Assembly: GCA_964553245.1 (NCBI GenBank)
Contig: CAZKJM010000001.1
Coordinates: 81,806 to 145,805 of the forward strand
Source of the DNA: an uncultured Gammaproteobacteria bacterium
Lineage (GTDB): Bacteria > Patescibacteriota > Microgenomatia > Levybacterales > UBA12049
Reading direction: 5' to 3'
Length of the DNA: 64,000 bases
The position numbers and the translations under genes were made by a program. Below the pieces are notes generated by a model. The model saw only the letters and a program-made list of their open reading frames with translations, had not been told where the DNA came from and made no database searches. Of this stretch, positions 4,095 to 21,164 are shown in pieces. Within the stretch, counting starts at the first letter, position 1. The number at the start of each line of letters is the position of its first letter.

Positions 4095-4106
4095 ATTCTT
4101 GAGGAG

Positions 4107-6056: not shown

Positions 6057-6098
6057 AGCTTAAATAATATCTTAAAATAAAAGGTATTGCAAATATTT

Positions 6099-6764
6099 CT
6101 ACAGGGCTCCTTTTCCGGAAATCATTGCCCAAGGAGTTTTAAAAACAATTAAAAAGTCGTAAAAAACTGATCTTTTCTTAACATAATCTGCATCCATTTC
6201 TATACGCTTATCAAAATTAATTTCACTTCTGCCTGAAACTTGCCAATATCCTGTTAACCCAGGTTTTATTGAAAGCACAATTTTTACTGCATCCTTAGTG
6301 TTTGGGTATTTTTTTTGCTGTTCTCTTAGTTCATCCGGATAATATGCTCTTGGACCAACTAAGCTCATATCTCCTTTTAAAATATTGATAAATTGCGGGA
6401 CTTCATCAAGAGAGTGTTTCCTTATAAAATGTCCTACCTTTGTTATTCTTGGATCATCTTTTAATTTGTAACTTCCTCTTCTGTATTGTTCATAATATTT
6501 TGCAAACTTCGGATTATTTCTTAAAATATCGTGCGCGTTAATAATCATCGATCGAAATTTATACATTTTAAATGTTTTTCCGTTTTTACCAACTCTTGGA
6601 GGCGTATCTGCCATAATTGGACCCTTGGAATCAATTAATATTGCTAAAGAAACAATTAATATGATTGGTGAAAAAAATATCAAAAGAGTTGAAGAAAATA
6701 ATACATCCATTAATCTTTTAATAATTTCGTAAAACGTACTTTTTTTTATTTCTTTATATGGCAT
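6099..6764 (-). CDS. polyprenyl-phosphate hexose-1-phosphate transferase (bacterial sugar transferase family, WbaP/WcaJ C-domain-like initiating enzyme)
   Basis: 221 aa with one N-terminal TM helix. Conserved KFRSM...DE(V/L)PQ...GDMSLVGPR motifs of the PGPT family are present. Confidence 0.85.
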   Translation of the reverse strand: MPYKEIKKSTFYEIIKRLMDVLFSSTLLIFFSPIILIVSLAILIDSKGPIMADTPPRVGKNGKTFKMYKFRSMIINAHDILRNNPKFAKYYEQYRRGSYKLKDDPRITKVGHFIRKHSLDEVPQFINILKGDMSLVGPRAYYPDELREQQKKYPNTKDAVKIVLSIKPGLTGYWQVSGRSEINFDKRIEMDADYVKKRSVFYDFLIVFKTPWAMISGKGAL

Positions 6765-6765
6765 A

Positions 6766-7848
6766 TTACGAAAGCTTCTCGTTTGTTGTTCCGTTTAAAC
6801 TCTCTACTAATTTTTTTACTTTAGGGACTGATTTTTTTGGACAAACTAAAATTACATCATCTGTGTTAACCACGAGCATTTGATCAAGATCAATGCCAAC
6901 CACCATTTGATTTGTGTAGTTAAAAATTAAGCTATCCTTACTATCCTCAACCATTACTTTACCTTTAGTAAGGTTATCTTCTTCTTTATCAACCAATGCT
7001 TCTTTTAAAGATTCCCACGCTCCAATATCACTCCATCCCAAATCGCAGCCAATTACATAACCGTCTTTAGGATCAATTTTTTCCAAAATCAAATTATCAA
7101 AAGAGTTTTTTTCAAAATTGGGATAAACCTTATTTAACTCCTGCTGAAAATTATCTTGACCCCAGTATTTTTGAATCTTTAATAATTCTTCGTACATTTC
7201 AGGAGCAAATTTTTTGTATAAAGAAAAAAGGAATTCTGCTGTAGTCCCAAAATATCCGGGATTCCAATAATGCAATTTGCTCTTATGAAAATCTTCTGCT
7301 GTTTTAATATCCGGTCTATAGTGAAAACTTTTAAATCCAAAAACCGAAAGACCATTGGCTTCTTTTACTTTATTACCTTGCTCAATCCAACCTAAATTCT
7401 GACTTGCAAATCTTGAGTCTTGAGCCATAAAAACTATTTTATTATTATCTTTTTTTAAAAGATCGTTTCCTGTAAGGATTACTTTTCTAAATACTTCCTC
7501 ATTTTTTACGAGATGATCGCTCCAGAGAATAAAAAACGGTTCGTTAGGGGAAATTTTTTGAAGCACTGCTGTTACAAGCCCAACAGCTGCACCAACATCA
7601 CGCATTTCAGGTTCGAAAATAAAATTCTGTTCAGGGATATCAGGTAATTGTGAAATTATTAACTCTTTGTATCTTATTCCAGATGAAATAAAGATATCTG
7701 ACGGTTTAAATATCGGATAAACCCTATCGTAGGCAAGTTGCAAAGTTGATTTATCTCCGACAATTTTTTCAAATTGTTTCGGTGTGTTTTTTCTTGATAA
7801 AGGCCAAAGTCTTGTACCAACTCCTCCTGCAAATATTACTACCTTCAT
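6766..7848 (-). CDS. mannose-1-phosphate guanylyltransferase-type sugar-1-phosphate nucleotidyltransferase
   Basis: N-terminal MKVVIFAGGVGTRLWPLSRKNTPKQF (GGxGTRLWPLSR) is typical of ManC/GMP family nucleotidyltransferases. 360 aa. Confidence 0.75.
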   Translation of the reverse strand: MKVVIFAGGVGTRLWPLSRKNTPKQFEKIVGDKSTLQLAYDRVYPIFKPSDIFISSGIRYKELIISQLPDIPEQNFIFEPEMRDVGAAVGLVTAVLQKISPNEPFFILWSDHLVKNEEVFRKVILTGNDLLKKDNNKIVFMAQDSRFASQNLGWIEQGNKVKEANGLSVFGFKSFHYRPDIKTAEDFHKSKLHYWNPGYFGTTAEFLFSLYKKFAPEMYEELLKIQKYWGQDNFQQELNKVYPNFEKNSFDNLILEKIDPKDGYVIGCDLGWSDIGAWESLKEALVDKEEDNLTKGKVMVEDSKDSLIFNYTNQMVVGIDLDQMLVVNTDDVILVCPKKSVPKVKKLVESLNGTTNEKLS

Positions 7849-8948
7849 AATTTTTTAAAATGTCTTATTAATTCCTTTTCTATTAACCTACCTAATTTCT
7901 TTTCAAAATTACCTTCAGAAAACTTTTTAGCGCTAAGCTGTAATAATTTAGTATTATATCTTTTATTATTTACATTTTCCAATACTTTTTTTAAAGAAAA
8001 AGCTGATTGTTCTTTAAAAAATTCTCCCGTTATTCCTTCTTTAATTATATCCAGTGCTCCACCGCCTTTGTATGCAATAACGGGTTTTCCAAAGCTCTGT
8101 GCTTCGGTCATCACTAATCCAAAATCTTCAATTCCGGGAAAAATCAATGCTTTACAATTTTTATAATAAAACGAAAGCTCATCGTCCGTCAATCTGCCCA
8201 AGAATTCAATGTTAGGACCTGCTATTTTTTTAAGATTATTTTCTTCCGAACCTATTCCAACAATTTTTAGAGGGAATTTTAAATAATTAAAAGCCTTGAT
8301 TGCAACATCAATTTTTTTATAACGAACAAGTCTTGAAACAATTAAATAAAAATCCTTGTCTTTTCTAAAAACAGCTTTATTTTTTGTTTTTTTCTTAATC
8401 AAAGTCATCGGAGGATGTATTAAAGATGAATCACGATCATAATATTTCTTAATTCTTTCTTTAACTTCTCTTGAAATTGAAACAAAAGTATCGGGTCTTT
8501 TTGAGGCTATTTTATCCCATCTTCTTAAATAAGAAACAACAGGCTTAGATAAATTTTTAAGCAATGAATTCTTAAAATAGTCTTCATAACCACTCCAAAG
8601 ATATCTAGTCGGTGTTAAGCAATAACAAATATGTAAAGTTTTATCTTTTGTAATAATCCCCTTAGCTGCTTCGCTTGTTACTGATATTACTAAGTCATAA
8701 TCATCAAATCCAAAATTTTCAAAAGCGATTGGCATTAGCGGAGCTAGAATCTCATGTGAGGTTTTTGCATTGGGTATTTTTTGTAAAAAAGACGTTTTTA
8801 CATCAAATTCTTCTGCCCATAAAGCAGTTTTCCTATTATAAACAGATGTGAAAATCGGTGCTTTTGGAAAAATCTTGTGAAGGGAGAGAAGTACTCTTTC
8901 TGCACCTCCCCATTTATTTATTCTGTCGTAAACTAAAGCAACTTTCAT
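7845..8948 (-). CDS. glycosyltransferase family 4 (GT-B, GT1-type C-domain)
   Basis: Motif EDFGLVMTEAQSFGKPVIA (E-x7-E region). 367 aa. Confidence 0.8.
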   Translation of the reverse strand: MKVALVYDRINKWGGAERVLLSLHKIFPKAPIFTSVYNRKTALWAEEFDVKTSFLQKIPNAKTSHEILAPLMPIAFENFGFDDYDLVISVTSEAAKGIITKDKTLHICYCLTPTRYLWSGYEDYFKNSLLKNLSKPVVSYLRRWDKIASKRPDTFVSISREVKERIKKYYDRDSSLIHPPMTLIKKKTKNKAVFRKDKDFYLIVSRLVRYKKIDVAIKAFNYLKFPLKIVGIGSEENNLKKIAGPNIEFLGRLTDDELSFYYKNCKALIFPGIEDFGLVMTEAQSFGKPVIAYKGGGALDIIKEGITGEFFKEQSAFSLKKVLENVNNKRYNTKLLQLSAKKFSEGNFEKKLGRLIEKELIRHFKKL

Positions 8949-10038
8949 AAATCTTAAAGGTTTCTATAGCAGTTTTTTTCCATGAAAATTTAGATGCTCT
9001 TTTATATGCATTTTCAATTTTATTTTTAAAATCCTGTTTTTTCTTTTTGTATACATAAATCATTTTTTCTTCCATATCAAAAATATCATAAGGGTCAAAG
9101 TAAATGGCATCATTTTTGCAGATTTCTTTGACTGATGGGATATTAGAAGCTAAAACTAAGCATTTATTTGAAATTGCTTCTATTACGGGTAAACCGAATC
9201 CTTCCATAAAAGAAGGCATTATTAATGCGATTGCTCCTCTGTATAATTCTTTAAGTTTTTCATCCGTAACTCGTCCTGTTAGAATAACTGATTTAGATAA
9301 TCCATCTTCATTTATTTTATTTTTTATTTTTTTATAAAAGTAATCCTCTTTTCCAACCATAAATAATTTTAGATCTTTAAATTGGTTATTAAGGTTTTTA
9401 AACGCATTTATTAAGCCCTCAAGATTTTTATGTGGGTATGCATTTCCAACATATAAAAAATATCTATCTCTGCTTTCCTTACTAAAAGTTTTACTACTAT
9501 TAACAATTTCAGACCCCTCATGAGTTATATAAATCATATCTTTATTAACTTTTAAGTGACTTATTACCTCCATTCTTGTAGCCTCAGATGGAACAATTAT
9601 TGCAATTGCTTTTTTAGCAATACTTTTAATAACAAATTTATATCCCAGTTTTTTAAATTTATAAATTGGCATAGGCAAAGTCGATGCTTTACCTGTTGAA
9701 TGATGATCTATTATTAAATCGTGAATCGTTACTATATATGGTTTACTGTAAAAAACCGGTACCGAAAAATAAGGAAAATGCATTAAATCTAGATTTTCTT
9801 TATAAATTATTTTAGGAAAAACAAATTGCTCTTTTAAAGAGTGCCAATTAATATCCGCTACTGTTAATTTGAAGTTTTTATTTTTAACATCTTTTTTTAT
9901 AGAAGTCTTGTCACTGCTTTTAATAAATAAAGTATATTCATTTTTTTTATCTATTTTCTGAAGTTCTTTTATTAAATTTCTAGTGTATCTGCCAATGCCA
10001 GTCTGGTTCCAAAATCTTGCATCAATACCAATTTTCAT
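8914..10038 (-). CDS. glycosyltransferase family 4 (GT-B)
   Basis: Motif EGFGLPVIEAISNKCLVLAS. 374 aa. N-terminal MKIGIDARF... GT4 N-domain. Confidence 0.8.
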   Translation of the reverse strand: MKIGIDARFWNQTGIGRYTRNLIKELQKIDKKNEYTLFIKSSDKTSIKKDVKNKNFKLTVADINWHSLKEQFVFPKIIYKENLDLMHFPYFSVPVFYSKPYIVTIHDLIIDHHSTGKASTLPMPIYKFKKLGYKFVIKSIAKKAIAIIVPSEATRMEVISHLKVNKDMIYITHEGSEIVNSSKTFSKESRDRYFLYVGNAYPHKNLEGLINAFKNLNNQFKDLKLFMVGKEDYFYKKIKNKINEDGLSKSVILTGRVTDEKLKELYRGAIALIMPSFMEGFGLPVIEAISNKCLVLASNIPSVKEICKNDAIYFDPYDIFDMEEKMIYVYKKKKQDFKNKIENAYKRASKFSWKKTAIETFKIYESCFSLRQNK

Positions 10039-10084
10039 AAACGAATTATAGCTAAATAAATCCGAGAAGACAATCTATTTTAAA

Positions 10085-10978
10085 TTAAGCACTTAATTTA
10101 GTAAGTTTTTCTTTCAAATTAATTGCAGAAAACATGATCCAATTAATAAAAAATGGGTATTTTTGTTTATAGTTTTTTTTATAAAAAATTCTCATTGCGT
10201 TAAATCTTGCCTTAGACACAATTTCTTTTGTTTTATTATCAGCTGTAGAAATTTCTGATGAAATCTTTTTTATTCCACCAGAAACTCCTTTATAGTGAAG
10301 AATTGCAACATCTGGAACATAATATATTTTCCATCCTTGTTTTTTTAATTGATAACAGAAATCAATATCTTCTCCATAAAAGAAATAGTCTTCGTCCCAC
10401 CAACCTGCTTCACTTCCAGCCTCTCTTTTAACAAGCATAAATGCTCCGGCAAGAGCATCGATTTCGTGAGTTTTATTTAAATCCATATAATTAAGGTTAT
10501 AACCATTGAGAATTTTTAATTTGGGGAATATTTTTGAAAGACCTGAGAAGTGACATAACGAATTCCATGGGGTTGGAAAACCTCTATGAGACGCATCATC
10601 AATTCTCCCATTAACTAAAAGCACTTTACAAGTAGCTGCTCCGGCATCTTCTGTTTTGTTCATAAAATTAATCATACGCTCAATCGTATTCTTATAAATA
10701 ACCGTGTCCGAGTTTAAAAATAGGATGTATTTGCCCTTTGCTTTTTTTAATCCCAAATTATTAGCTTTAGAAAAACCTAGATTCTTATTGCTTCTGATTA
10801 AATTTACTTTAGGAAATTTATCTTTTACCATTTCTACAGAATCATCAGTGGAATTATTGTCTACAACGATTACTTCATAATTTATTTTTCTTGAAATATT
10901 TTCAAAAACTGACTCCAAGCATTTTTTCAAAAAATTGCTTGTATTAAATGAAATAATTATTATAGATAAATCAACCAT
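10085..10978 (-). CDS. glycosyltransferase family 2 (GT-A)
   Basis: N-terminal LSIIIISFNTSNFLKKCLESV...VVDNNSTDDS (DxD-type GT2 signature). Confidence 0.8.
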   Translation of the reverse strand: MVDLSIIIISFNTSNFLKKCLESVFENISRKINYEVIVVDNNSTDDSVEMVKDKFPKVNLIRSNKNLGFSKANNLGLKKAKGKYILFLNSDTVIYKNTIERMINFMNKTEDAGAATCKVLLVNGRIDDASHRGFPTPWNSLCHFSGLSKIFPKLKILNGYNLNYMDLNKTHEIDALAGAFMLVKREAGSEAGWWDEDYFFYGEDIDFCYQLKKQGWKIYYVPDVAILHYKGVSGGIKKISSEISTADNKTKEIVSKARFNAMRIFYKKNYKQKYPFFINWIMFSAINLKEKLTKLSA

Positions 10979-10982
10979 AATT

Positions 10983-12152
10983 TTAAATCGATGCTTTATA
11001 TATATATTCTAATCTCTGCGCAATTTTTTTCCAGTCATATTTATCTTCGATTAATTCTCTTGCATTATTCGTTAGCTTTTCAAACAAATCTTTATTATTT
11101 AATAGGTCAATCAAGCATTTAGAAAATTCATAACTGTCTAATGCTGTTAATACGTGGGTTTTATTTTTTGCTCCAATTCCTTCTACGCCAAGCTCTGTGG
11201 TAACAACTCCAACTCCACTAGCCATTGCTTCAAGAATTTTAAAACTTGTTCCACCACCGATCCTTATTGGAGCAAGTAAAATATCTGTTTTCTTAAATAT
11301 TTCTTCTGTTTCTTCATTGTTGTTATAATCGAAAACTACGTTTTTAAAATCTCGACTTCTAAATGCTTCCGGAATATTTTTTCCAACAATCCATAATTGA
11401 GTATTATCTACTTTTTGTAATACTTTTGGCCAGATATCAAAAAGGATAAACTTTAACGCATCAATATTTTGCACCCATTTAAAATCTCCAATAAAAAGAA
11501 TTTTCTTGTTTTTATTTAAAAAATTTTTTTTATCAAATTTGAATTTTCCGATATCTACACCGTTTGGAATAACTTCTGCATTTTTAATCCCCATTAACGA
11601 CTTTTCTATGTCGGAAACCGCAATAAGTTTTTTTGCCTTTTTCCAAAACTGTTGCTCTTTTATTTTTAACTTATAAACATCCCAATATAAAAATGGCTTA
11701 AGAAAAAAAATCGCCCTGTCGGAAAATCTTTTATAAACTAGGTACTCAACATTATGCTCAACTAAAACTGTTGGCAAATTTGTTTTTGGAAGATTTTGAA
11801 ATACATACGAAGTTTCTATGTGAATAAGATCATATTTTTCATTTTTTAATTCATTTCTAATCTTTTTTCTTAGTAATTTATTCTTATGCCCTGTTATTAA
11901 AAACGGATTTAAAGAAAAAGCGGTTTTTATTATATTTTTAAAGCTCCATTGCTTAAATCTTGGGACAGTTAAAACTTTATCGCAAATTTCTTTGACTTTA
12001 CTTATTTCTTTTTCGTTTTGATTATCTCTTTTTTCACAAATTAAAGTAATTGAGTTTTTTTTTGATAGTTCTTTAATTAAGTTATAAAGCCTAATATGTC
12101 CTCCTGAATAAAGAGGATAAGGTAAAAAAGAAGAAATCATTAATATTCTCAT
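10983..12152 (-). CDS. glycosyltransferase family 4 (GT-B)
   Basis: 389 aa. C-domain with GGTSFKILEAMASGVGVVTT (GT1 motif). Confidence 0.75.
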   Translation of the reverse strand: MRILMISSFLPYPLYSGGHIRLYNLIKELSKKNSITLICEKRDNQNEKEISKVKEICDKVLTVPRFKQWSFKNIIKTAFSLNPFLITGHKNKLLRKKIRNELKNEKYDLIHIETSYVFQNLPKTNLPTVLVEHNVEYLVYKRFSDRAIFFLKPFLYWDVYKLKIKEQQFWKKAKKLIAVSDIEKSLMGIKNAEVIPNGVDIGKFKFDKKNFLNKNKKILFIGDFKWVQNIDALKFILFDIWPKVLQKVDNTQLWIVGKNIPEAFRSRDFKNVVFDYNNNEETEEIFKKTDILLAPIRIGGGTSFKILEAMASGVGVVTTELGVEGIGAKNKTHVLTALDSYEFSKCLIDLLNNKDLFEKLTNNARELIEDKYDWKKIAQRLEYIYKASI

Positions 12153-13618
12153 GGCTTTTCTTTTAAATTAAACAATGCGAAATCCGAGGTTGCTTTTATA
12201 ATTTTATATTCTTTTCCAATTTCTAAATCTTTTTCTGTTGGACTAATGATTGCCAAGTAATCTGCTCCCAGTAAAGACATTTGAGAAAGGGAATTTTGAA
12301 AACTTGCCCAACCTTTTCTTTTTGTCTGATAAAGAAAAGATGTATCTCCATTGTAATTTGCGATTATTTTTGCATCTTTTGGAATTAATTTATCAATTTC
12401 TTCTCCTGCAATAACTATTGAACGATTATTAATATTAAAAAAATCTCTTACAATATACCAACTAAAGAAAAATGTAAACAAAACTATAAGCGCAAATATT
12501 AAATAAGAAATAATTTTGTTTGTTAAATTTTTATTATTTAACAAGAACGAGCTACCTACTCCAAGATAAACAGCAATACTTGGAATTATTAAAATTTGGT
12601 AATAATCATGTTGAACATTTCCTCTTGCTATTACAAATAAATATAATAATGACGACAACGAAAACGAAAATAAAAATAATAAATCATTTTTCTTTTGCCT
12701 TGCGATAAACCCCAATATGAAAAGTCCAATTCCCCAAAATCCTAAAATTAATTTTCCAATTCTTTCTGCAAATATCCAGTAAAAAAAGGATCCTTTAAAT
12801 CGTATATTCCCTCCGTTAAAAAGCCAGTCGCTTGCAGGAATACCTTCTGGGTATTGACTAATCCAAAATCTCCATAAAATAAGCGGAATAATAGAAATAA
12901 CTGCGTAAAGCCATAAATTCCATTTTTTAAGAAAGCTTAAACCAAATTTTTCGTAAGAAAGATATATTAATGGCAGCGTAAAAAATAAGGCATATGGTTT
13001 AACCAAAAAAGCTAAAGTTGTAAATAATAAGCTTAAGATGAACTGATGATTAAAGATTGATAACCTAAGGTCTTTATTAAGCCATTTATCAAAAAAATAA
13101 ATTCCCCCAAGATTTAAGGTAACCATCAATGGATCAGGAAGGATTGTTCTTGAGTAATAAATATTGAATGGCAAAAATAAAAAGAAAAAATACGTCAATA
13201 ATCCAGTCAAGAATCCAAATCTTTTTCTAATAATAAGAAAAAGAAAAAGCCCTGAAAAAACTGAACCAAAAATATTGATCAGTCTTCCCCACTCTTCCAA
13301 GCTTAAAAAATTAAACAAAATAAATCCACCTGCTTGAAGCGCATTAAAAACCGGAAATTCCACAAATCTATATCCTTGAGGATTATTTATTCCTGATGGC
13401 ACATTCGACAAATCGTCAAACCGCGGATGTAAGAAATCAAAACCGTTATTGACAAAATTTCTTGAAACAGATGATGTATCCGCTTGTCTCCATGAATGCC
13501 AATCTGCAATTGGGTTATTAAATCCATAAAATCTTACTAAAAAACCAAGGATGAACAAAATAACCACGGAAATAATTTTATTTTTATTATTTTTGAGCAT
13601 TTTTCTTAACTTCCGCAT
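12149..13618 (-). CDS. polytopic membrane glycosyltransferase, GT-C fold, PMT/ArnT-like variant
   Basis: 489 aa with about 10-12 predicted TM helices. The first extracytoplasmic loop carries an acidic motif (ADWHSWRQADTSSVSRNF...EFPVFNAL) resembling the DE/HPPL region of the GT39/GT83 families. Confidence 0.55.
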   Translation of the reverse strand: MRKLRKMLKNNKNKIISVVILFILGFLVRFYGFNNPIADWHSWRQADTSSVSRNFVNNGFDFLHPRFDDLSNVPSGINNPQGYRFVEFPVFNALQAGGFILFNFLSLEEWGRLINIFGSVFSGLFLFLIIRKRFGFLTGLLTYFFFLFLPFNIYYSRTILPDPLMVTLNLGGIYFFDKWLNKDLRLSIFNHQFILSLLFTTLAFLVKPYALFFTLPLIYLSYEKFGLSFLKKWNLWLYAVISIIPLILWRFWISQYPEGIPASDWLFNGGNIRFKGSFFYWIFAERIGKLILGFWGIGLFILGFIARQKKNDLLFLFSFSLSSLLYLFVIARGNVQHDYYQILIIPSIAVYLGVGSSFLLNNKNLTNKIISYLIFALIVLFTFFFSWYIVRDFFNINNRSIVIAGEEIDKLIPKDAKIIANYNGDTSFLYQTKRKGWASFQNSLSQMSLLGADYLAIISPTEKDLEIGKEYKIIKATSDFALFNLKEKP

Positions 13619-16600
13619 CTAAGATTACTTGATAGTCTGTTACGCTTCCATCGCTATTAAATATTAAAATCTTTTTATCCAAAGACATCTCTGTACTTCT
13701 TAATGCTATATTTAAATCAAGATATTTATTGATTTTTATATTGTCGTTTTTAAAAGACAACCAAACTGCATCCTCTATTCCTACCGGAAAAACCCAAGCA
13801 TCACCGTATTTAATCGGAACATCAACAAAGTTCAACTCAACGGGACCTTTCGCCCACTCGTTTTTATATATTGAATCTATAGAAATAAAAAATTTCTTGC
13901 ACTTATCTCCCGCTCCTAACCAATCAAAGGATGTTTGCCGTAAGCTAATGATGTGGAAAAGAGAATATGTACTAATTAATATAAAAATTGAAAAAACTGC
14001 TATTTGTCTACCGTTAACTAATAAGAATTCAAAAAACTTCTTAACCAAAAGAACAAGAATAAAGATTATTCCAATTGATGCAAGATAACTGTATCTTGAA
14101 GTAATATTTCCAAGACCTATAAAGGGGAGAAGCGAAACCACAAAAAATATAAAACTGAATAAAATAATTCCTTTTTCGTTCCTTTCAAATGCTCGTAAAA
14201 TATTTTTATATACGATGTATAAAATAAATACCACAATTAATATTATTAATGTCGAAGCCAAAATATTTTCTCTTGCATTTATTCTTATTGACTCATAAAT
14301 AGGCAGAGCTATCGGACCCAATAATGTAATAAAAATATAACCGAAAATATTTCCAATAAAGTTAAGAGGTAGTTTTACAAGATTATAGTTATAATCCCCA
14401 TTTAACCAGTGACTGTTTGATAAATATCTTGCGATTAAATAGATAGCTACCGGAATAAAAAAACTTAAAAAGTCCTTTCTTCTAAGAAATGTTTTTATAT
14501 TTGTAATCGAATTATCCTTAAATTTATAAGCTAAGACAAGAAGCGGTAACGCAACTCCTAATTCGTGAAACAACAAGGACATTGCAAAAGAAATAAAAGA
14601 CAGAATAAAAAGATAAAATTTTCGTTTCTCGTCCCAATTAATAAATAATATTAAACCCAGTAATCCAAAAAATGCATTGAACAGGTGTCCTGTCGGAGCA
14701 ATCCAATAGACCATTTCTAGTGATCCGCTCATTGTTAAGAATAATACTGACGCAAAAAATGCTAATAATTTTCTATTAAATACTTTTCTTCCTAAAATAA
14801 AAACTAAGACCGAAATTGCAAAATGCAGAAAAATGGAAACCGAATGATAGACAACTTGATTCAGCCAAAAAATGTTATACATAAAATAAAAGTAAACTTT
14901 TGTTCCTGGTCTATAAAAAAAACCGTCAGACGAGGTAAAAAAACCTAATATTCCATTTTTTGCATCAGCCGCCCATCTAAGCCATGTAAAATCATCGCCT
15001 GTAAAAAAGCTCTCTATGCTTGAAGAAAACAAAAAGAAGGCAATAAAAAATAAATATATCGCAATTGCCCAAGTTGACGTGGCAATCTTTTTTAACTCAG
15101 GCAACAGACTTATTGATTTTTTTTGATAAAGAACAAGCGTTGCAAAAGCTAACCCCATTAAAATCCATAATACAAAAGCAATCTTTGAAGCTTCAAACAC
15201 ATCAATTAACGTTGCATTTAAAGCAAGACCTATCACTCCTGCAACAAAACCCAAAATAAAACTTTTTGCAATTTTCGAGTCAATATCCGGCCAAATTTTT
15301 TTTACATAAACTCCAAAAGATAAAAATATCGCTAAAAAGGAAATAAGACCCAAAAGCCCTACTTCCCCAAGTAATCTAAGATAATTATTGTCAACTGCAA
15401 GACTTACCGAACCATAACCGCTACCTAATAATATGTTTCTATTAAACGCATCAAGAGCCCTTGGCCATTCTCCCTGAAACCTCGTTGTAAAAGACATATC
15501 GTAAGCAGCTGCTCTTTTAACTATAAAATCGCCGTGTAAAACTAAATGATCTGCGCCAATTTTTTCTTTGGCATTTGGAGGAAACTCATAAAAAAAACTA
15601 TCTAATCTATTAACTACTGGTGATAATAATAGATTAATATAACCTGTTCCTTGGGGTAGATTTTCTCCGGTTGAGATGTTTGTTGCAACAACTAATGGTA
15701 CCTTTTCTGGAATATATTTATGGTCTAAAATCGCAGTTGGAGAAGCAAGGGGATCATTTTTATCTCCAGTTAATGCCCTATTTAATTCTTCTTTATCTTT
15801 AACATTTTTTTGTAGTACTATTTTATTTTTAAAGTATTCTTGGTTAACAAATTTAACGTGGCCAACCGACTCTCCTGTTTTTGCATCAACTAACACGTCT
15901 ACTTCTTTAACTGTGCTTTTAAAACGATCAAAAAGAGATGTTTGAAAACTAAGTATTAATATTGAAGAAACTAAAATTATCGGAATCGAGATCAATACAA
16001 GTTTTTTCTTTTGAAAGAAAAGGACTATAAATAACGAAACCAGTAAAACAAAAAAAGAAACTCTCGATACAGTCATAAATAAAAGAATAAATCCAAAAAT
16101 CGAAGTAACTAAAAGAACAAATTTTAAAAGTAGGTTTTTAATTCCGAAAAATAAACTAACAATAATTGGAATTATTAACACCAAATAAGCTGCCAAATCA
16201 TAATGCCCCGCAAAAGTTGACGGAACTCTTGATAATTGAGATAACTGGATTGGAGTACCTTTGGCAAACTCTTCATTCATTGTTAAATAAGCCGGAAAAC
16301 CAAGATATTTTTGACCAAAGCCATATCCAATTACTGCAATAAGTGAGATAACAAGAGCGGCAACTATAAAAGGAAGGTATTTTTTATTTTTCATTCCCTG
16401 AAAAGCAATAAAAAATAAGCTCATGTATTCTATATGTCTTAAGAGGCTCAAGAATGCCACGTTTGGAAAAACATTCGCAATTTTAGGAAAAATCAATAAT
16501 ATTCCATGAAGCGTTGCAACTATTCCAATAGACCAAAAAATAAAAATCGGCATTGTCAAGGGCGTTTTTAAATTGATTTTTTTTAAGAATAAAAGGGCAA

Positions 16601-16769
16601 CCCAAAACAAAAGAACAAATAAAACAATAAAATCTTCAAGTCTTACATATACCCATGTATTTCTAATATCAACCATTGGTATTTTAGGATAAAGCGGAAT
16701 AAATGCTAGTAAAAAAAGTGATATTAAAAATAAAATATTATTCTTAATAAAAGCAATTAATTTATTCAT
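13587..16769 (-). CDS. 1060-aa fusion membrane protein: N-terminal O-antigen-ligase/polymerase-like (Wzy_C-type) domain plus C-terminal GT-C-like polytopic domain
   Basis: The N-half has many TM helices, a large extracytoplasmic loop of about 190 aa, and a GSGYGSVSLAVDNNYLRLLGEVGLLGL block that matches the WaaL/Wzy_C signature (GxGxG...HNxYLxxLxExGxxG; here D replaces H). The C-half (from ...FFTGDDFTWLRWAAD...) resembles the first-loop region of the GT-C-like paralogs at 58275..60572 and 60569..62203. Confidence 0.6.
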   Translation of the reverse strand: MNKLIAFIKNNILFLISLFLLAFIPLYPKIPMVDIRNTWVYVRLEDFIVLFVLLFWVALLFLKKINLKTPLTMPIFIFWSIGIVATLHGILLIFPKIANVFPNVAFLSLLRHIEYMSLFFIAFQGMKNKKYLPFIVAALVISLIAVIGYGFGQKYLGFPAYLTMNEEFAKGTPIQLSQLSRVPSTFAGHYDLAAYLVLIIPIIVSLFFGIKNLLLKFVLLVTSIFGFILLFMTVSRVSFFVLLVSLFIVLFFQKKKLVLISIPIILVSSILILSFQTSLFDRFKSTVKEVDVLVDAKTGESVGHVKFVNQEYFKNKIVLQKNVKDKEELNRALTGDKNDPLASPTAILDHKYIPEKVPLVVATNISTGENLPQGTGYINLLLSPVVNRLDSFFYEFPPNAKEKIGADHLVLHGDFIVKRAAAYDMSFTTRFQGEWPRALDAFNRNILLGSGYGSVSLAVDNNYLRLLGEVGLLGLISFLAIFLSFGVYVKKIWPDIDSKIAKSFILGFVAGVIGLALNATLIDVFEASKIAFVLWILMGLAFATLVLYQKKSISLLPELKKIATSTWAIAIYLFFIAFFLFSSSIESFFTGDDFTWLRWAADAKNGILGFFTSSDGFFYRPGTKVYFYFMYNIFWLNQVVYHSVSIFLHFAISVLVFILGRKVFNRKLLAFFASVLFLTMSGSLEMVYWIAPTGHLFNAFFGLLGLILFINWDEKRKFYLFILSFISFAMSLLFHELGVALPLLVLAYKFKDNSITNIKTFLRRKDFLSFFIPVAIYLIARYLSNSHWLNGDYNYNLVKLPLNFIGNIFGYIFITLLGPIALPIYESIRINARENILASTLIILIVVFILYIVYKNILRAFERNEKGIILFSFIFFVVSLLPFIGLGNITSRYSYLASIGIIFILVLLVKKFFEFLLVNGRQIAVFSIFILISTYSLFHIISLRQTSFDWLGAGDKCKKFFISIDSIYKNEWAKGPVELNFVDVPIKYGDAWVFPVGIEDAVWLSFKNDNIKINKYLDLNIALRSTEMSLDKKILIFNSDGSVTDYQVILDAEVKKNAQK

Positions 16770-17632
16770 ATTTTAAAAGCCTCTAGGTAAGTATTTTCTA
16801 AATATTTATTATTGACTATTTTGCCTAAAACCACAAGAATCAATGCCTTTGTTTTAAGGAAAAATACTGCAATTAGATACTGCCATCTTGGTTTATATTT
16901 TTTATAGAAAAATTTTATGCCTTTATAAATATTTAGTATCGCAAATGTTTTATTACTGCTTCCTCTCTCTTTGTGAATTATTTCTATATCTTTATAAAAA
17001 TAAGTATCAAAACCTCTTAATTTTGCTCTAAAACAAAGTTCCTGATCTTCCATATACATAAAAATTTCTTTTTCAAACATTCCCAGTTTATTAAATAAAT
17101 CTTTTTTTATCATCAAGCTTGCTCCACTTACCCAATCAACTTTTTTGTTATTTTTGGGGCTAAATCTTAAAAATTCAAACCTTTCAAGCCCTAAAAGCAT
17201 TAAAAAAAGATTAAAGAGTGTATAAAATTTTCCTGCTGATTTTTGAATCGATCCGTTGGGAAATTTTAATTTTGCACCCAATATTCCGATTTTTTTATTT
17301 CCCTTCATAAACTCAATCATTTTTAAAAATCCTCTATCTTTAACTTCTGTATCCGAGTTTAGAAATAATAAATATTCTCCCTTAGCTTTATCAGCGCCAA
17401 GATTGCAACCCTTGGAGAATCCAAGGTTTTCTTTTAATTCAATTAATTTAATTTTTGAACTCAATTTTTTAAATGAGGAGATAGAATCATCAATTGAATT
17501 ATTGTCCACAAGAATGACTTCTAGCTCTTTTGAATCTAATTCTTTCTTATATTCTTTGTAAATTGATTCAACGCAAGATGTAGTTAAGTCTTTTGTATTG
17601 TAGTTTAAAATAACTATAGAAAGAGTAGTCAT
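16766..17632 (-). CDS. glycosyltransferase family 2 (GT-A)
   Basis: LSIVILNYNTKDLTTSCVESI...VDNNSIDDS signature. 288 aa. Confidence 0.8.
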   Translation of the reverse strand: MTTLSIVILNYNTKDLTTSCVESIYKEYKKELDSKELEVILVDNNSIDDSISSFKKLSSKIKLIELKENLGFSKGCNLGADKAKGEYLLFLNSDTEVKDRGFLKMIEFMKGNKKIGILGAKLKFPNGSIQKSAGKFYTLFNLFLMLLGLERFEFLRFSPKNNKKVDWVSGASLMIKKDLFNKLGMFEKEIFMYMEDQELCFRAKLRGFDTYFYKDIEIIHKERGSSNKTFAILNIYKGIKFFYKKYKPRWQYLIAVFFLKTKALILVVLGKIVNNKYLENTYLEAFKI

Positions 17633-17640
17633 TATATAAA

Positions 17641-18195
17641 TTATCTAAACCAGGCGGGTCTACCAAGTTTGTAATTTAGCTCTTTTACTTCTCGTTTCTT
17701 TATCGGCTTTGCGGGAACGCCTCCAACAACCATATTTTCCTCAACGTCTCGATTAACTACTGCTCCAGCTGCAATAATTGCACCTTTTTTAATCGTCACT
17801 CCAGGAAGGATTATTGATCTTGGTCCAACAAAAACATAATCTTCAATCACAACTGGTTCTGTTATTGCTTTAAACTTAGAATCATTAATATCATGCTCTG
17901 CGTTATAGACCATTACCTCTGAGGCGAAATCAACGTGATCTCCGATTATTAATTTATCTCTTCCATCCAAAACCACACCTTCTCCGATAACCGTATCCTG
18001 ACCGATTCTAATGCCACTTGGTTTATAAAACCTTGCGTTCGTATGAATTGCTGATCCTCTACCGATCCGCATTCCAGAAAGTCTATAAAAAAACTTCCTA
18101 AATTCGTGAGAGGGAACATGTCCAATCCAAATTAGAAGCATATTTAAAAATTCCAGTGAAATTGCTTTTATTCTTCTTGTTATTTTTTCTCCCAT
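17641..18195 (-). CDS. hexapeptide-repeat (left-handed beta-helix) sugar O-acetyltransferase (WcaF/maltose-acetyltransferase-like)
   Basis: Repeated [LIV]-G-x-x-x-x hexapeptide units (IGQDTVIGEGVVLDG...IGDHVDFASEV...). 184 aa. Confidence 0.75.
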   Translation of the reverse strand: MGEKITRRIKAISLEFLNMLLIWIGHVPSHEFRKFFYRLSGMRIGRGSAIHTNARFYKPSGIRIGQDTVIGEGVVLDGRDKLIIGDHVDFASEVMVYNAEHDINDSKFKAITEPVVIEDYVFVGPRSIILPGVTIKKGAIIAAGAVVNRDVEENMVVGGVPAKPIKKREVKELNYKLGRPAWFR

Positions 18196-18215
18196 ATATT
18201 TTAAGCTTAATACAT

Positions 18216-19313
18216 CTATTTTTTATTTACCAATTCTTCCAGTGCTTTTAAAGTCTCTCTTGCTGTTTTTTCCCATGAAAATTTTTTAACCTGCTCATAA
18301 CCTTTTTTAATCATTTGTGCTCTTAGTTTCTCATTTTTTAAAACCTGATTAATTTTTGTTGTAATGTCGGAAACATTTTCTGGATCAATATAAACGGCAG
18401 CATCTCCACCTGCTTCGGGAAGAGAGGAAATATTGCTGGTAATTACAGGGCAACCGTATTTCATTGCCTCAAGTACAGGAAGACCAAATCCTTCATACAA
18501 AGATGGTAAAACAAAACATTTTGCATTTTTATAAAGTGACGGTAAATCTTCATTAGTTACAAAATCTAGAAACTTAACCCTATCCCTAACCTTATATTTA
18601 TCAGGAGCCGCTAATATTTCTTCATATAGCCAGCCTTTCTTACCAACAATAACTAAATCAACTTTTTTATCTTCAATTTTTGAGAATGCCTCAATTAGTC
18701 TCGAAGTATTTTTTCTTGGCTGAAGAGTCCCAACGAATAATAAGTACTGTTTATCTATTCCAAATTTCTTTAAGTCTGTATTTTTCATATCTTTTAACTG
18801 CTTAATGCCTGGGTAGGTCACAACTATCTTTTTTGAATCCACTTTATATTCTCTAATTATATCACTCTTGCTGGACTTGCTAATTGTAAAGATTAACTTT
18901 GCATTTACTGCAGAATATCTAGTCCAATTTATTAATTGATATAAATCATTTTTTTTAAATAAATCTGGAAAATGAATATAGGAAAGATCCATTATGGAAA
19001 TTGCTGTTGATGTAGGTGAGTATCTTGGGGCATAATGAGACGGTGTAAAAAAAACATCAGTTTTCTCTTTTTCAAACATTAATCTAAAAGGGAGAGCAAT
19101 TTGAGTCCACATTTTTTTAGGTCCAATTACTTTGTATTTCCAATTGCTAGACTCATTTGGCATATCTGAAAGAGGATTATCTTTTAGGTAAATTCTAAAA
19201 TCTAAATTCTGAGTCTTGAATTCATTGAGTTGCTTAAGCAACTCATATGCGTACTCACCTATTCCAACTCTATTTTTTACATTGGCTTCATTACCATCAA
19301 TTCCTATTATCAT
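18216..19313 (-). CDS. glycosyltransferase family 4 (GT-B)
   Basis: EGFGLPVLEAMKYGCPVITSN motif. 365 aa. Complete N- and C-domains. Confidence 0.8.
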   Translation of the reverse strand: MIIGIDGNEANVKNRVGIGEYAYELLKQLNEFKTQNLDFRIYLKDNPLSDMPNESSNWKYKVIGPKKMWTQIALPFRLMFEKEKTDVFFTPSHYAPRYSPTSTAISIMDLSYIHFPDLFKKNDLYQLINWTRYSAVNAKLIFTISKSSKSDIIREYKVDSKKIVVTYPGIKQLKDMKNTDLKKFGIDKQYLLFVGTLQPRKNTSRLIEAFSKIEDKKVDLVIVGKKGWLYEEILAAPDKYKVRDRVKFLDFVTNEDLPSLYKNAKCFVLPSLYEGFGLPVLEAMKYGCPVITSNISSLPEAGGDAAVYIDPENVSDITTKINQVLKNEKLRAQMIKKGYEQVKKFSWEKTARETLKALEELVNKK

Positions 19314-19317
19314 AATC

Positions 19318-19851
19318 TTAAAATCCTGGATAGATCACCTTTAATTTTTGCTTATCTATACCTAAGATATCAATTGCATCCTGTTTCGTAGCCTCAGAAA
19401 TACAAAATACTATATTAGACTCTTTTTTTACCCAATTAAGTTTTCTTCTTTGCGTCTGAACAATTTTATTGTCTGTTTCTTCTGGTTTAGAATATACAAT
19501 AAGGTCATATAAAATTGTAGCCTTAATTGCCTTTCTTGCTGGCGGTTCCGTCCAATCTGAAGTAATAAATAAATCTATGTCTCCGATAAAATTTTCGATT
19601 GGAACAATGTGAAGCTTATTCCATAAAATATTAAGTAAAGTTGGAGGTAGATTAAACGATTTTATCTTTACGTTATTTGAATTACTAAAATTTAACAAAG
19701 ACGAATCAATTTTTTTTCTTAAAGATGAAAAAAATAAAACATATTCATTCTTTGTGTCAATTTCCAAGAGAGCATTAACTAAGTTTTTAAGATATTCTGA
19801 AACTCCAGTGTTTTTGTATGCTAACTGAGAAATATCTATTCCAATTCTCAT
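19318..19851 (-). CDS. GT4 N-terminal-domain-only ORF (177 aa; possible gene remnant or stand-alone half-domain)
   Basis: It aligns with the N-domains of neighbouring GT4s (MRIGIDISQLAYKNTGVSEYLKNL... versus MKIGIDARFWNQTGIGRYTRNL...). It stops after VIYPGF, and there is no C-terminal nucleotide-binding domain with an E-x7-E motif. A complete GT4 starts 4 nt downstream. Confidence 0.5.
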   Translation of the reverse strand: MRIGIDISQLAYKNTGVSEYLKNLVNALLEIDTKNEYVLFFSSLRKKIDSSLLNFSNSNNVKIKSFNLPPTLLNILWNKLHIVPIENFIGDIDLFITSDWTEPPARKAIKATILYDLIVYSKPEETDNKIVQTQRRKLNWVKKESNIVFCISEATKQDAIDILGIDKQKLKVIYPGF

Positions 19852-19917
19852 TCTTTAATTTTACTATTATTTAACCCTAATCTTCAAATATAAATTATTA
19901 TTTGTTAAAATGCTCCA

Positions 19918-20871
19918 ATGGGAATTGAAACAGAAAACAAAAGTATTATTAATTTAGGATCAAATCCTGAGCAAGAAACAAAAACATACAACATTAATGT
20001 AGATAATTTTATAAAAAAATACAAAGTAGAAGATCAAAAAACCATAGAAGTATTACGAGATTTTCCTACTCTTTGCTATCTTTTAGGAAATGTAACAGAG
20101 GAACCTCAAGGAACTGATTCAAGCCCAGATGGAATAAATCGTCATATTTTTTATTTAACAGAAGGTTCTGGAATGTTCGGATTAAAAAACCCAGAAGATG
20201 CTCAAAGATGGAAAGGTATTTTTAATCATATAATGGGATCTTCTAGGCATGTATATTTTTTATCCGAAAAAATTAATGCTTCAACAGCTAATCAAAAACA
20301 AGAATTATTCGATTTGGGATTTGATATTAATTCTCTTCGACAAATAAATCCTAAAATTCTTAGAGATTTTATGTTTGTTAACCATGCTGCAAGAAGACGA
20401 TTTGATGAAAGAAAATGGCATAATCTAAGAGATGATGCACACCCTGAAGGAGAAAGCGAAGATCTAACTACAAATTTACTTCTAGAAAATGATGCGCCTG
20501 AAGAGTTGATAAATTTAATGCGAGCAGAAAACCATACTTACTTAACCACACTTGGACGGAATAATTATCTTCCGAATCTTTCAATTAATATATTGACCTA
20601 TGGTGACTGGACATTTGGTCAAAAACCAGTCACCATAAAGGAAAGGTTTACTCAGCTAAGAAAATCCCGAAGACAACCCGAAGTAGTACTTAATAAACTT
20701 GAAAACTTCGCGCTTTACTTTGAGAAGTCTATAAAAAAAATATTCGGGGAAAGTATTTTTAGCGACATGATAAAATCTGGTCCTTATAGATGGGAAACAA
20801 AAATTCGAGACGCATATTGTTCTGCTTCTGGATTAACCATCGAAGATGTTTTTCCGAGTTATCGCAGGTAA
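19918..20871 (+). CDS. hypothetical cytoplasmic protein, no recognizable family
   Basis: 317 aa with no TM segments. It is rich in D/E/R/H/G, unlike the Lys/Ile/Phe-rich neighbours. It is the only plus-strand gene in the first 43 kb, lies divergent from 19318..19851, and has a TAAAAT hexamer about 10 nt upstream of the ATG. Confidence 0.5.
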   Translation: MGIETENKSIINLGSNPEQETKTYNINVDNFIKKYKVEDQKTIEVLRDFPTLCYLLGNVTEEPQGTDSSPDGINRHIFYLTEGSGMFGLKNPEDAQRWKGIFNHIMGSSRHVYFLSEKINASTANQKQELFDLGFDINSLRQINPKILRDFMFVNHAARRRFDERKWHNLRDDAHPEGESEDLTTNLLLENDAPEELINLMRAENHTYLTTLGRNNYLPNLSINILTYGDWTFGQKPVTIKERFTQLRKSRRQPEVVLNKLENFALYFEKSIKKIFGESIFSDMIKSGPYRWETKIRDAYCSASGLTIEDVFPSYRR

Positions 20872-20886
20872 TAATTTAATAAAATT

Positions 20887-21117
20887 TTATCCCTTGGATT
20901 CATTTTTAAGCTCCTCAATAAATATAAAGATTATTGCTAAGGCAATAAAGGAAGCTGCATAATAAATCAATCTTTGGGCGGTAAAAAATATCCAACTTGA
21001 AAACAAAGGAATCGCCAATATTAAACAAGCCAATCCTAGACTTAAAGTAAGCTTAAAACTTCGTTTGAAAATTAAAAAAACAAATATTATTAAAAAAATA
21101 GCATCTTGTGGTTTCAT
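20887..21117 (-). CDS. small membrane protein (76 aa, 2 predicted TM helices)
   Basis: Hydrophobic ORF located between the unknown plus-strand gene and the GtrB-like gene. Confidence 0.35.
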   Translation of the reverse strand: MKPQDAIFLIIFVFLIFKRSFKLTLSLGLACLILAIPLFSSWIFFTAQRLIYYAASFIALAIIFIFIEELKNESKG

Positions 21118-21164
21118 TTAAACTGTTAAATAAGATTTAAGCCCGTTTTTTAAAAACATTTTCC

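Follow-up and report, generated by a model that had tools for sequence, protein, structure and literature searches.

A conserved Microgenomates membrane protein joins two classes of lipid-linked-sugar transferases and most likely builds and decorates a cell-surface sugar polymer

The O-antigen ligase WaaL (PDB 7TPG/7TPJ; CAZy GT121; PF04932) carries a catalytic His. The His of O-ligases aligns with the essential Asp of SEDS proteins and with the Asp/Glu of polymerase families, and SEDS proteins and many Wzy-type polymerase families normally carry Asp there (PMC10920833). The GT-C_A enzymes include PMT/Pmt4, STT3/AglB/PglB, ALG12 and ArnT. In Lactococcus, the GT-C enzyme WpsJ transfers the polymer made by WpsI onto rhamnan (PMC9574508). 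Our literature searches returned no described fusion of a Wzy_C domain with a GT-C enzyme, and no work on CPR glycosylation dealing with the fusion family reported here, whose database records read 'hypothetical' or 'O-antigen ligase family protein'. Microgenomates are uncultured and host-dependent; the lineage (Patescibacteria/Microgenomates) is regarded as monoderm, without LPS or a lipid A-core.

We analysed a window of 64,000 nt (GCA_964553245.1, contig CAZKJM010000001.1, positions 81,806-145,805, forward strand). Translation of the window gave an uninterrupted ATG-to-TAA frame of 1060 codons; this confirmed the ORF that a first-pass annotation had proposed and placed it on the minus strand, no strand having been given before. 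At 29% GC, a run of 1060 codons without a stop would arise by chance with a probability of about 1e-39. The start of the ORF and the stop of the upstream GT2 gene share 4 nt (ATGA). The peptides quoted in the annotation were all present, at residues 232-240 (MTVSRVSFF), 449-475 (GSGYGSVSLAVDNNYLRLLGEVGLLGL), 591-602 (GDDFTWLRWAAD) and 618-628 (FYRPGTKVYFY). Relatives of the fusion occur in no fewer than 571 species genomes. Of their loci, the best 80 (80/80), from Levy-, Roizman-, Gottesman- and Woesebacteria, contained it at full length, with a match spanning approximately residues 1-1045 or more. At least 120 homologs were 952-1086 aa long (nearly all 1045-1086) and covered 90-100% of the query, and an identical protein was found on four independent contigs. 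Because at least 571 genomes encode relatives and the best 80 loci all hold the full-length fusion, the 1060-aa ORF is a genuine gene and not an assembly join. The architecture had been called unusual, which holds relative to characterised systems; in hundreds of Microgenomates genomes it is the standard form.

The two modules are separate neighbouring genes in some related organisms. In loci L086 and L087, the N and C halves are adjacent genes, with the first ending and the second beginning at the Lys-rich linker; both split junctions fall at A-runs, and an assembly error of one base in such a run could look like a split. The C-module occurs alone in L088-L090, and the N-module occurs alone, adjoining PMT_2, in L092. 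These N-less and C-less operon variants showed that the pairing of the modules is not obligatory. An apparent 'C-only' representative (P0154), starting at about query position 534, proved to be a contig-end fragment rather than a stand-alone gene; other representatives starting near that position were left out of the stand-alone counts as being of the same type. A hydropathy scan and AF2 secondary structure showed two polytopic blocks and a large extracytoplasmic loop (~276-470) in the first of them, as the annotation had described. Based on the Lys-rich linker and the TM count, both conserved motif sets are predicted to face the outside of the cell.

The fusion lies in a conserved operon identified by Pfam and NCBIfam scans (Table 1). 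Core genes (6099-19851) were kept in 57-77 of the 80 best related loci, and the outer genes in 32-50 of 80, a count limited by the 10-kb flanks. The conserved block contained no Wzx-type flippase; the sole one in the window belongs to a non-conserved cluster ~37 kb off. The 64 kb showed no genes for lipid A or core.

Table 1. Features of the fusion gene and its operon (window coordinates).
Feature	Coordinates	Strand	Remarks
Conserved operon around the fusion	3555..24154	minus	RecO to 680-aa membrane protein; Pfam and NCBIfam scans
RecO, DUF4012		minus	operon genes; listed before the WbaP-type gene
WbaP-type phosphoglycosyltransferase	6099-6764	minus	operon gene
ManC-like	6766-7848	minus	operon gene
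GT4 (two), GT2, GT4		minus	operon genes; listed between ManC-like and PMT_2 GT-C
PMT_2 GT-C	12149-13618	minus	adjoins the fusion in the operon listing
Whole fusion ORF, two-module polytopic membrane protein	13587..16769	minus	1060 aa; stop codon 13587-13589
N-module, WaaL/Wzy_C-superfamily (GT-C_B) fold	15114..16769	minus	residues 1-552; ~12 TM helices and large external loop
R236 (in MTVSRVS), counterpart of E. coli WaaL R215	16062..16064	minus	HMM and hhalign alignments to WaaL LTQTRAT
Beta-rich insertion in large external loop	15495..15917	minus	residues ~285-425; AF2 secondary structure and alignment
R430 (in FTTRFQGEWP), putative second Arg for phosphate binding (WaaL R288 class)	15480..15482	minus	motif resemblance
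D460 (in AVDNNYLRLLGEVGLLG), site of WaaL catalytic His / essential SEDS Asp	15390..15392	minus	shared Pfam HMM coordinates
Lys-rich cytoplasmic linker at module junction	15072..15113	minus	residues 553-566
C-module membrane part, GT-C_A fold	13872..15071	minus	residues 567-966
D592-D593, acidic pair in first external loop just after TM1	14991..14996	minus	candidate catalytic or metal site
FYRPGTKVYFY, conserved FFYRP motif of first-loop helix 2	14886..14918	minus	residues 618-628; R620, P621 invariant
C-terminal alpha/beta domain, predicted extracytoplasmic	13590..13871	minus	~95 residues; conserved NVPI..G.AWVFPVGL.DA motif
GT2, hexapeptide acetyltransferase, GT4, GT4 N-domain		minus	operon genes; listed between fusion and ArnC-like gene
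ArnC-like polyprenyl-P-sugar synthase (ArnC/PgfS/AglJ-like GT2)	21165-22118	minus	183.6 bits
680-aa membrane protein		minus	last in operon listing

The N-module showed a WaaL-like three-dimensional fold. Wzy_C (PF04932) was the sole Pfam match of the fusion, at 15.5 bits (E 0.015, residues 418-479), under the gathering score of 31.7 bits; the first-pass annotation had itself held that the lack of a hit above threshold would speak against its reading, which formally applies to this score. The gathering score was exceeded by two relatives (P0249, 45.9 bits; P0252, 42.1 bits) and by the split N genes of L087 (33.1 bits) and L086 (32.3 bits), and 25 of 36 close homologs (the alignment of 55-75% identity used throughout) matched Wzy_C at E<=0.1. 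Because of the fold and of these relatives passing the Pfam threshold, we assigned the N-module to the Wzy_C superfamily. The SEDS model FTSW_RODA_SPOVE (GT119), which gave 450.8 bits with E. coli FtsW, had no match in the fusion at E<=0.1. An NCBIfam scan of the protein gave no match, and PDB sequence and profile searches with the whole protein and family alignments yielded nothing relevant.

Three residues of the N-module stand out. R236 was aligned with WaaL R215 by both hmmsearch (17.5 bits) and hhalign; it is invariant in 36/36 close homologs and R or K in distant relatives. Its WaaL counterpart belongs to the residue class that binds lipid diphosphate (E. coli WaaL R215, C. metallidurans R191). 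R430 lies in the large external loop and is invariant in the 36 close homologs and in the alignment of stand-alone and fused relatives; its motif resembles that of WaaL R288/R265, of which it may be the counterpart. D460 sits at the start of the helix preceding the last TM helices, as expected of an acceptor-activating His/Asp/Glu. Extrapolation puts it and WaaL H338 alike at Pfam Wzy_C position ~130, which bore out the earlier view that Asp replaces the catalytic His; this equivalence was read from shared Pfam HMM coordinates, a motif-only HMM having failed to align the WaaL His region. Comparison by hhalign of the N-family profile with single E. coli sequences picked out the expected regions of WaaL (E 0.016) and FtsW (E 0.069), not significantly. 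In the FtsW alignment, D460 precedes the SEDS Asp by one residue, so that this equivalence is approximate. The beta-rich insertion of the external loop was common to the three fused sequences in the wider alignment and was variable or of low complexity in stand-alone relatives.

The catalytic His of O-antigen ligases sensu stricto (WaaL, GT121) is absent from the fusion, with Asp460 in its place. D460 is invariant in 36/36 close homologs, and Asp is at least 90% conserved across stand-alone and fused relatives. The first-pass annotation had asked whether the H-to-D change marks an inactive or repurposed domain. Because Asp is the consensus of the stand-alone and fused family and is normal in SEDS and many Wzy-type families (PMC10920833), the alignments argue that it is neither a lesion nor a sign of repurposing.

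The C-module showed a GT-C_A fold, and its top fold matches included the oligosaccharyltransferases STT3B, AglB and PglB as well as protein O-mannosyltransferases. Directly after TM1 (residues 567-585), the first extracytoplasmic loop carries the conserved acidic residues typical of GT-C_A enzymes: D592 and D593 are invariant in 36/36 close homologs and remain conserved at 90% or more in distant stand-alone relatives. The module has the motif set DDFTW, FFYRP, GDYxYN, LGLGNIxxRYxY and AWVFPVGLxDA, and its DD...YRP spacing may recall TMTC-type O-mannosyltransferases. Neither WWD nor W[WY]D[YW]G, as in oligosaccharyltransferases (STT3/PglB/AglB), occurred in residues 561-1060. The C-half of every family member was without a Pfam match, even at E<=10, and Pfam, NCBIfam and PDB sequence/profile searches matched it to none of the curated GT-C families (PMT, PMT_2, STT3, ArnT-like, ALG and others). 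The GT-C family of the C-half is abundant but escapes every Pfam and NCBIfam model, which hides the fusion architecture from domain databases. A first-loop pattern shared with neighbouring GT-C paralogs had been reported. The C-half HMM, run at full sensitivity against the other window ORFs, gave zero matches, including to the PMT_2 neighbour, whose first loop differs; close paralogy was therefore ruled out.

In our main reading, to which we give a probability of roughly 0.55, the fusion is the product of a two-gene fusion and a bifunctional extracytoplasmic enzyme, a polymerase/ligase joined to a decorating or transferring GT-C. It would have arisen when two neighbouring genes of the operon merged, giving a membrane glycosyltransferase of ~25 helices with both predicted catalytic sites outside. 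The WbaP-type phosphoglycosyltransferase and the GT4/GT2 enzymes would make a polyprenyl-diphosphate-linked oligosaccharide, and the N-module, through its Arg-Arg-Asp set, would polymerise it or ligate it to an acceptor; the SEDS/Wzy-type Asp slightly favours polymerisation. The ArnC-like GT2 would make a polyprenyl-monophosphate sugar donor for the C-module, and the genomic context (this GT2 and the phosphoglycosyltransferase) would suit use of a polyprenyl-phosphate-linked sugar by the C-module. The C-module would most likely add that sugar to the glycan of the N-module; less likely, it would move the finished glycan to its final acceptor. No characterised GT-C could be linked to the C-module at the sequence level, so its donor and acceptor are guesses. 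Also counting against the main reading are the lack of a Wzx-type flippase in the conserved block, the sub-threshold Wzy_C score of the protein itself, the operon variants with a single module and the A-runs at the split junctions. Strong sequence conservation is likewise unusual for Wzy polymerases; that of the fusion suits a WaaL-like ligase or a WzyE-like conserved polymerase equally well. More generally, we infer the substrates, the choice between polymerase and ligase, the order of the steps and the benefit of the fusion, which would be to couple two outside steps in making a surface glycopolymer conserved across Microgenomates.

A less probable alternative is that the N-module is not a polymerase but a ligase or O-oligosaccharyltransferase of the WaaL, PglL or WsaB type, acting en bloc on a protein (pilin, S-layer) or a core glycan, with the C-module only decorating. 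That the group is monoderm and without a lipid A-core speaks against a ligase. PglL-type O-oligosaccharyltransferases, too, retain a His. The acceptor-activating residue here is Asp, against the His reported for O-ligases (PMC10920833), and a candidate acceptor protein was not identified.

Somewhat doubtful is the reading of the C-module as an OST/PMT-like transferase that moves the polymer of the N-module en bloc, which would make the protein a fused polymerase and ligase, comparable to lactococcal WpsI plus WpsJ. The STT3B, AglB, PglB and protein O-mannosyltransferase fold matches, the conserved and predicted extracytoplasmic C-terminal domain, and the transfer of the WpsI polymer onto rhamnan by WpsJ (PMC9574508) all support it. 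The fusion might then be a self-contained assembly line outside the membrane, unlikely as we rate it, in which a Wzy-type polymerase hands a lipid-PP polymer to the attached GT-C for transfer to a protein or cell-wall acceptor. If true, such a polymerase-ligase fusion would define the major conserved surface glycoconjugate of Microgenomates (CPR), and the C-module would be a new GT-C_A family.

It is quite improbable that one half is a dead scaffold, either a repurposed H-to-D ligase or a non-catalytic GT-C-fold subunit like PIG-U/GAB1. SEDS and polymerase families function with Asp at this site (PMC10920833). Moreover, R236, R430, D460, D592, D593 and R620 are invariant in the 36 close homologs and conserved in distant stand-alone relatives, and the (near-)invariance of R236, R430, D460 and D592/D593 in fused and stand-alone relatives argues for retained catalysis. 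An assembly or frameshift artefact joining two genes, which the first-pass annotation had considered, is hardly credible: two genes do occupy the equivalent position in L086 and L087, but a homopolymer error, if anywhere, is more plausible in those split versions, no frameshift was found, and the identical copies on four contigs, the homologs spanning 90-100% of the query and the continuous match in the best 80 of at least 571 genomes all oppose it.

Under the main reading, the most likely role of the fusion is to build and decorate a conserved sugar polymer of the cell surface. Each half falls into a known enzyme class, and nothing is categorically new. The protein is a natural 'Rosetta stone': a widespread, strongly conserved fusion of GT-C_B (WaaL/Wzy/SEDS-type) and GT-C_A (PMT/STT3-type) enzymes, which argues that the two classes work one after the other on a single glycan on the outer side of the membrane. 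A single polypeptide with both activities could reveal how a polymerase/ligase cooperates with a decorating or transferring GT-C. Few conserved cell-envelope pathways can be seen in Microgenomates, and the operon is one of them. For annotation, Asp at the WaaL 'His' site would point to polymerase-type chemistry rather than inactivation.

Compared with WaaL, the fusion has Asp for the catalytic His, a beta-rich loop insertion of ~140 residues, a Wzy_C score under the Pfam threshold, no LPS context and a second enzyme joined to it. It shares Asp/Glu at the WaaL-His position with SEDS RodA/FtsW (GT119) and with the Wzy-type polymerases of clan GT-C1 (PMC10920833), and its GxGxGxS...D..[FY][IL]..[IL]GE.G..G resembles GQGLGNS...TDFIFAIIGEELGYVG of E. 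coli FtsW. These polymerases use lipid-PP-linked donors, and we infer the same donor type for the fusion. The C-module has no Pfam, NCBIfam or PDB sequence match to the GT-C_A enzymes at permissive thresholds, lacks the WWDYG motif and has its own motif set. In the L. lactis pellicle system (WpsI polymerase plus WpsJ) and in GtrA/GtrB/GtrC-type systems, an outside polymerase and a GT-C share one lipid-linked glycan (PMC9574508), and a GT2 lipid-P-sugar synthase lies nearby, as in the fusion operon. The lactococcal subunit is carried on C55-P (PMC9574508), whereas the fusion operon begins with a phosphoglycosyltransferase (PP-linked). The components of those systems are separate proteins; in the fusion, two of them are combined in one polypeptide.

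A single reading frame of 1060 codons, running from ATG to TAA, makes up the fusion gene. At a window G+C of 29%, a run this long without a stop codon would arise by chance with a probability of about 1e-39, and all peptides quoted from it in the first-pass annotation were found in this frame. Its start codon and the stop codon of the upstream GT2 gene share the sequence ATGA, an overlap to be expected if the gene is translationally coupled within its operon. The identical protein was present on four independent contigs. Among 5.8 billion proteins searched, 1328 relatives were detected; the best 120 were 952-1086 aa long (nearly all 1045-1086), covered 90-100% of the query at 55-75% identity and carried Levybacteria, Roizmanbacteria or Patescibacteria as source names, some being annotated 'O-antigen ligase family protein'. 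Among one-genome-per-species contigs, at least 571 stretches coded for a relative. All 80 loci retained from these (Levy-, Roizman-, Gottesman- and Woesebacteria) gave a single continuous match, roughly residues 1-1045 or more. An assembly join or a frameshift as the source of the fusion was thus excluded by the four contigs, the homolog coverage and the 80 continuous loci. Many MAG records with a Microgenomates-type operon (loci L005-L084) are titled 'uncultured Gammaproteobacteria bacterium', apparently a systematic labelling error within this series of MAGs.

The sole Pfam match of the protein was Wzy_C, at 15.5 bits against a gathering score of 31.7 bits, and the above-threshold match anticipated in the first-pass annotation was therefore not obtained. 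Wzy_C was matched in 25 of 36 close homologs (best E-value, 8.9e-5), and its threshold was exceeded by two relatives (P0249, 45.9 bits; P0252, 42.1 bits) and by the N genes of L087 (33.1 bits) and L086 (32.3 bits). At E<=1e-3, exhaustive profile searching recovered 44,558 representatives, among them many stand-alone proteins of 480-620 aa that matched the N-half with E about 1e-75 to 1e-100.

R236 (MTVSRVS) aligned with R215 of E. coli WaaL (LTQTRAT) in the N-half HMM alignment (17.5 bits) and by hhalign. The invariant R430 is a candidate counterpart of WaaL R288, by motif resemblance to the R288 region rather than by explicit alignment. WaaL 205-354 matched Wzy_C model positions 6-146 and fusion residues 418-479 matched positions 67-149, placing both WaaL H338 and D460 at about position 130; D460 therefore occupies the position of the catalytic His, in support of the earlier assignment. 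That this H-to-D change might mean inactivation, as had also been raised, did not hold: the Asp was invariant in 36 of 36 fused homologs, and 'TDN[ND][YF]LR.LGE.GL.G' was the consensus across the whole N-half family, fused and stand-alone. Schultz et al. found that the essential Asp of SEDS polymerases aligns with the proposed acceptor-activating His of O-ligases (PMC10920833). By eye, GQGLGNS...AHTDFIFAIIGEELGYVG of E. coli FtsW and GSGYGSVSLAVDNNYLRLLGEVGLLG of the fusion share one motif; hhalign of the N-family against FtsW was not significant and was offset by one residue. As judged from sequence, the invariance, the family consensus and the SEDS equivalence favour an active site maintained by selection and using polymerase-type chemistry over a dead or repurposed domain.

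In an alignment of fused and stand-alone relatives, a beta-rich insertion of ~140 residues (285-425) within the large external loop was common to the three fused sequences; this region was variable or low-complexity in the stand-alone ones. Proteins from other lineages, outside the window (P0200, P0211, P0229, P0252 and P0270), carry an N-domain of the same Wzy_C-like family with a different C-terminal region of ~600 residues, which in P0229 includes a calcineurin-like phosphoesterase (Metallophos) domain.

Pfam and NCBIfam gave no match to the C-half of any member, even with the cutoff relaxed to E<=10, and no PDB sequence matched its profile. Its top fold matches included STT3B (score 18.3), ALG12 (18.3), Pmt4 (18.2), AglB (18.1), Pmt2 (16.7), ArnT (15.9), AftA (15.7) and PglB (14.3). 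WaaL and SEDS structures were absent from this list, which shows that it is the N-half that accounts for the WaaL match of the full model. The C-half is a GT-C_A family without any Pfam or NCBIfam model, and the two-enzyme nature of the protein is thereby hidden from domain annotation. The invariant D592-D593, just past the first C-module helix (567-585), lies where GT-C_A enzymes carry their catalytic or metal-binding acid and is the candidate site. FFYRP, GDYxYN, LGLGNIxxRYxY and AWVFPVGLxDA were kept even in stand-alone relatives at 29-40% identity; the C-half has no WWDYG motif. Both motif sets, like the C-terminal alpha/beta domain of ~95 residues, are predicted to lie outside the cell, judging from the number of helices and from the Lys-rich linker between the modules (QKKSISLLPELKK). 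The first-loop pattern that the C-half was said to have in common with neighbouring GT-C paralogs was not recovered: at full sensitivity its profile matched no other ORF in the window, and the first loop of the neighbouring GT-C gene differs.

Four module arrangements occurred in related operons otherwise alike in gene set and order. This window and the 80 top-ranking genome loci had the fused form. In L086 and L087 the modules were encoded by separate neighbouring genes, with an overlap of 11 or 20 nt inside the linker. L088, L089 and L090 had the C-module only (the L089/L090 protein, P0221, was on 7 contigs), and L092 had the N-module only, followed by PMT_2. Thus, the halves are autonomous enzymes, former neighbour genes that fused in a Levybacteria-centred clade. 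The overlaps (L086:2982-2992 and L087:8001-8020, +1 frame) lie at A5-A6 runs. Since one A fewer restores the fused frame, some of these splits may be homopolymer sequencing errors, or the junctions may mark recent gene fission or fusion; this caveat does not touch the operons with only one of the modules.

Synteny placed the core genes (6099-19851) in 57-77 of 80 related loci and the outer genes (RecO, DUF4012, ArnC-like GT2, 680-aa protein) in 32-50, a count limited by the 10-kb flanks. WaaL/Wzy/SEDS enzymes act on lipid-PP-linked oligosaccharides, and GT-C_A enzymes usually draw on a lipid-P-monosaccharide as donor; from its gene content, the operon can make both.

Features of the fusion protein, the conserved block (in window order) and the second cluster
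Feature	Coordinates	Strand	Remark
N-half	residues 1-552		
MTVSRVSFF	residues 232-240		
GSGYGSVSLAVDNNYLRLLGEVGLLGL	residues 449-475		
C-half	residues 567-1060		
GDDFTWLRWAAD	residues 591-602		
FYRPGTKVYFY	residues 618-628		
RecO			block gene 1
DUF4012 protein, 649 aa	4107-6056	(-)	block gene 2
WbaP/EPS-type phosphoglycosyltransferase	6099-6764		71% median identity
ManC-like enzyme			after phosphoglycosyltransferase
Two GT4 enzymes			after ManC-like enzyme
GT2, then GT4			after two GT4 enzymes
PMT_2 GT-C	12149-13618		
Fusion gene	13587-16769	(-)	between PMT_2 GT-C and GT2
GT2, then WcaF-like acetyltransferase			after fusion
GT4			after WcaF-like acetyltransferase
Stand-alone GT4 N-domain (Glyco_transf_4 N-terminal), 177 aa	19318-19851	(-)	
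ArnC/PgfS/AglJ-like polyprenyl-P-sugar synthase	21165-22118		183.6 bits, full length
680-aa membrane protein			after ArnC-like synthase
Three consecutive membrane proteins (1140, 107, 680 aa)	22112-27893	(-)	unannotated
NeuB, UDP-GlcNAc 2-epimerase, PseB-like dehydratase			second cluster
FkbM methyltransferase			second cluster
Acetolactate-synthase-like TPP enzyme, split transketolase genes			second cluster
Wzx-like flippase	53726-55045		second cluster
Three further PMT_2 GT-Cs, PTPS_related membrane protein			second cluster
765-aa GT2/PMT_2 protein	58275-60572	(-)	second cluster

The 177-aa gene, which has a complete GT4 gene immediately downstream, was kept in 64 of 80 related loci and hence appears to be a genuine half-glycosyltransferase, not a pseudogene. 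In the DUF4012 protein, an N-terminal TM helix is accompanied by a stretch that, on visual inspection, may form a coiled coil; its gene adjoins the phosphoglycosyltransferase gene in 50 of 80 loci. Speculatively, it might be an analogue of a co-polymerase or chain-length regulator. The 1140-, 107- and 680-aa membrane proteins adjoin the ArnC-like GT2, and none had a credible Pfam match; the 680-aa protein was kept in 37 of 80 loci. A similar-sized trio in the same order (1129, 122 and 633 aa; L088:1163-6809), likened by size and order alone, lies upstream of a GT2 gene and the stand-alone C-half gene.

The rest of the window, about 27890-62203 (~28-62 kb), is a glycan cluster not syntenic in related loci. 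The window's second two-enzyme fusion lies here, a 765-aa protein in which an N-terminal GT2 domain is followed by a C-terminal GT-C domain of PMT_2 type; it might link a lipid-P-sugar synthase with the enzyme that consumes the lipid-P-sugar.

The first-pass annotation was correct in its central call that a Wzy_C-like part, carrying Asp in place of the His, is fused to a GT-C-like one. We consider it slightly better than an even bet (about 55%) that the fusion is a bifunctional extracytoplasmic enzyme in one glycan pathway. The N-module would bind a lipid-PP-linked oligosaccharide through R236 and R430, D460 would activate the acceptor hydroxyl, and repeat units would be polymerised or the glycan ligated. 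The C-module would add a side-chain sugar from lipid-P-sugar via the DD site or, alternatively, pass the product to the final acceptor. The folds, the conservation of site residues, the content and synteny of the operon and the history of the gene fusion are established here; the substrates, the polymerase or ligase role, the reaction order and what fusion gains (coupling or hand-over) are what we infer. Some points weigh against the bifunctional reading: in its strong conservation the protein resembles WaaL or WzyE more than a typical Wzy, the conserved block has no flippase gene, and some lineages lack one or the other module in the operon.

Literature searches found no description of this fusion architecture; it is not categorically new, because both modules belong to known superfamilies and hundreds of copies are in databases. 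The fusion is a Rosetta-stone link of GT-C_B (WaaL/Wzy/SEDS-type) to GT-C_A (PMT/STT3-type) enzymes and an entry point to a conserved surface glycan of Microgenomates. Its closest described multi-protein analogues are the polymerase WpsI and the GT-C transferase WpsJ of the lactococcal pellicle pathway, and three-component GtrA/B/C-type systems (PMC9574508).
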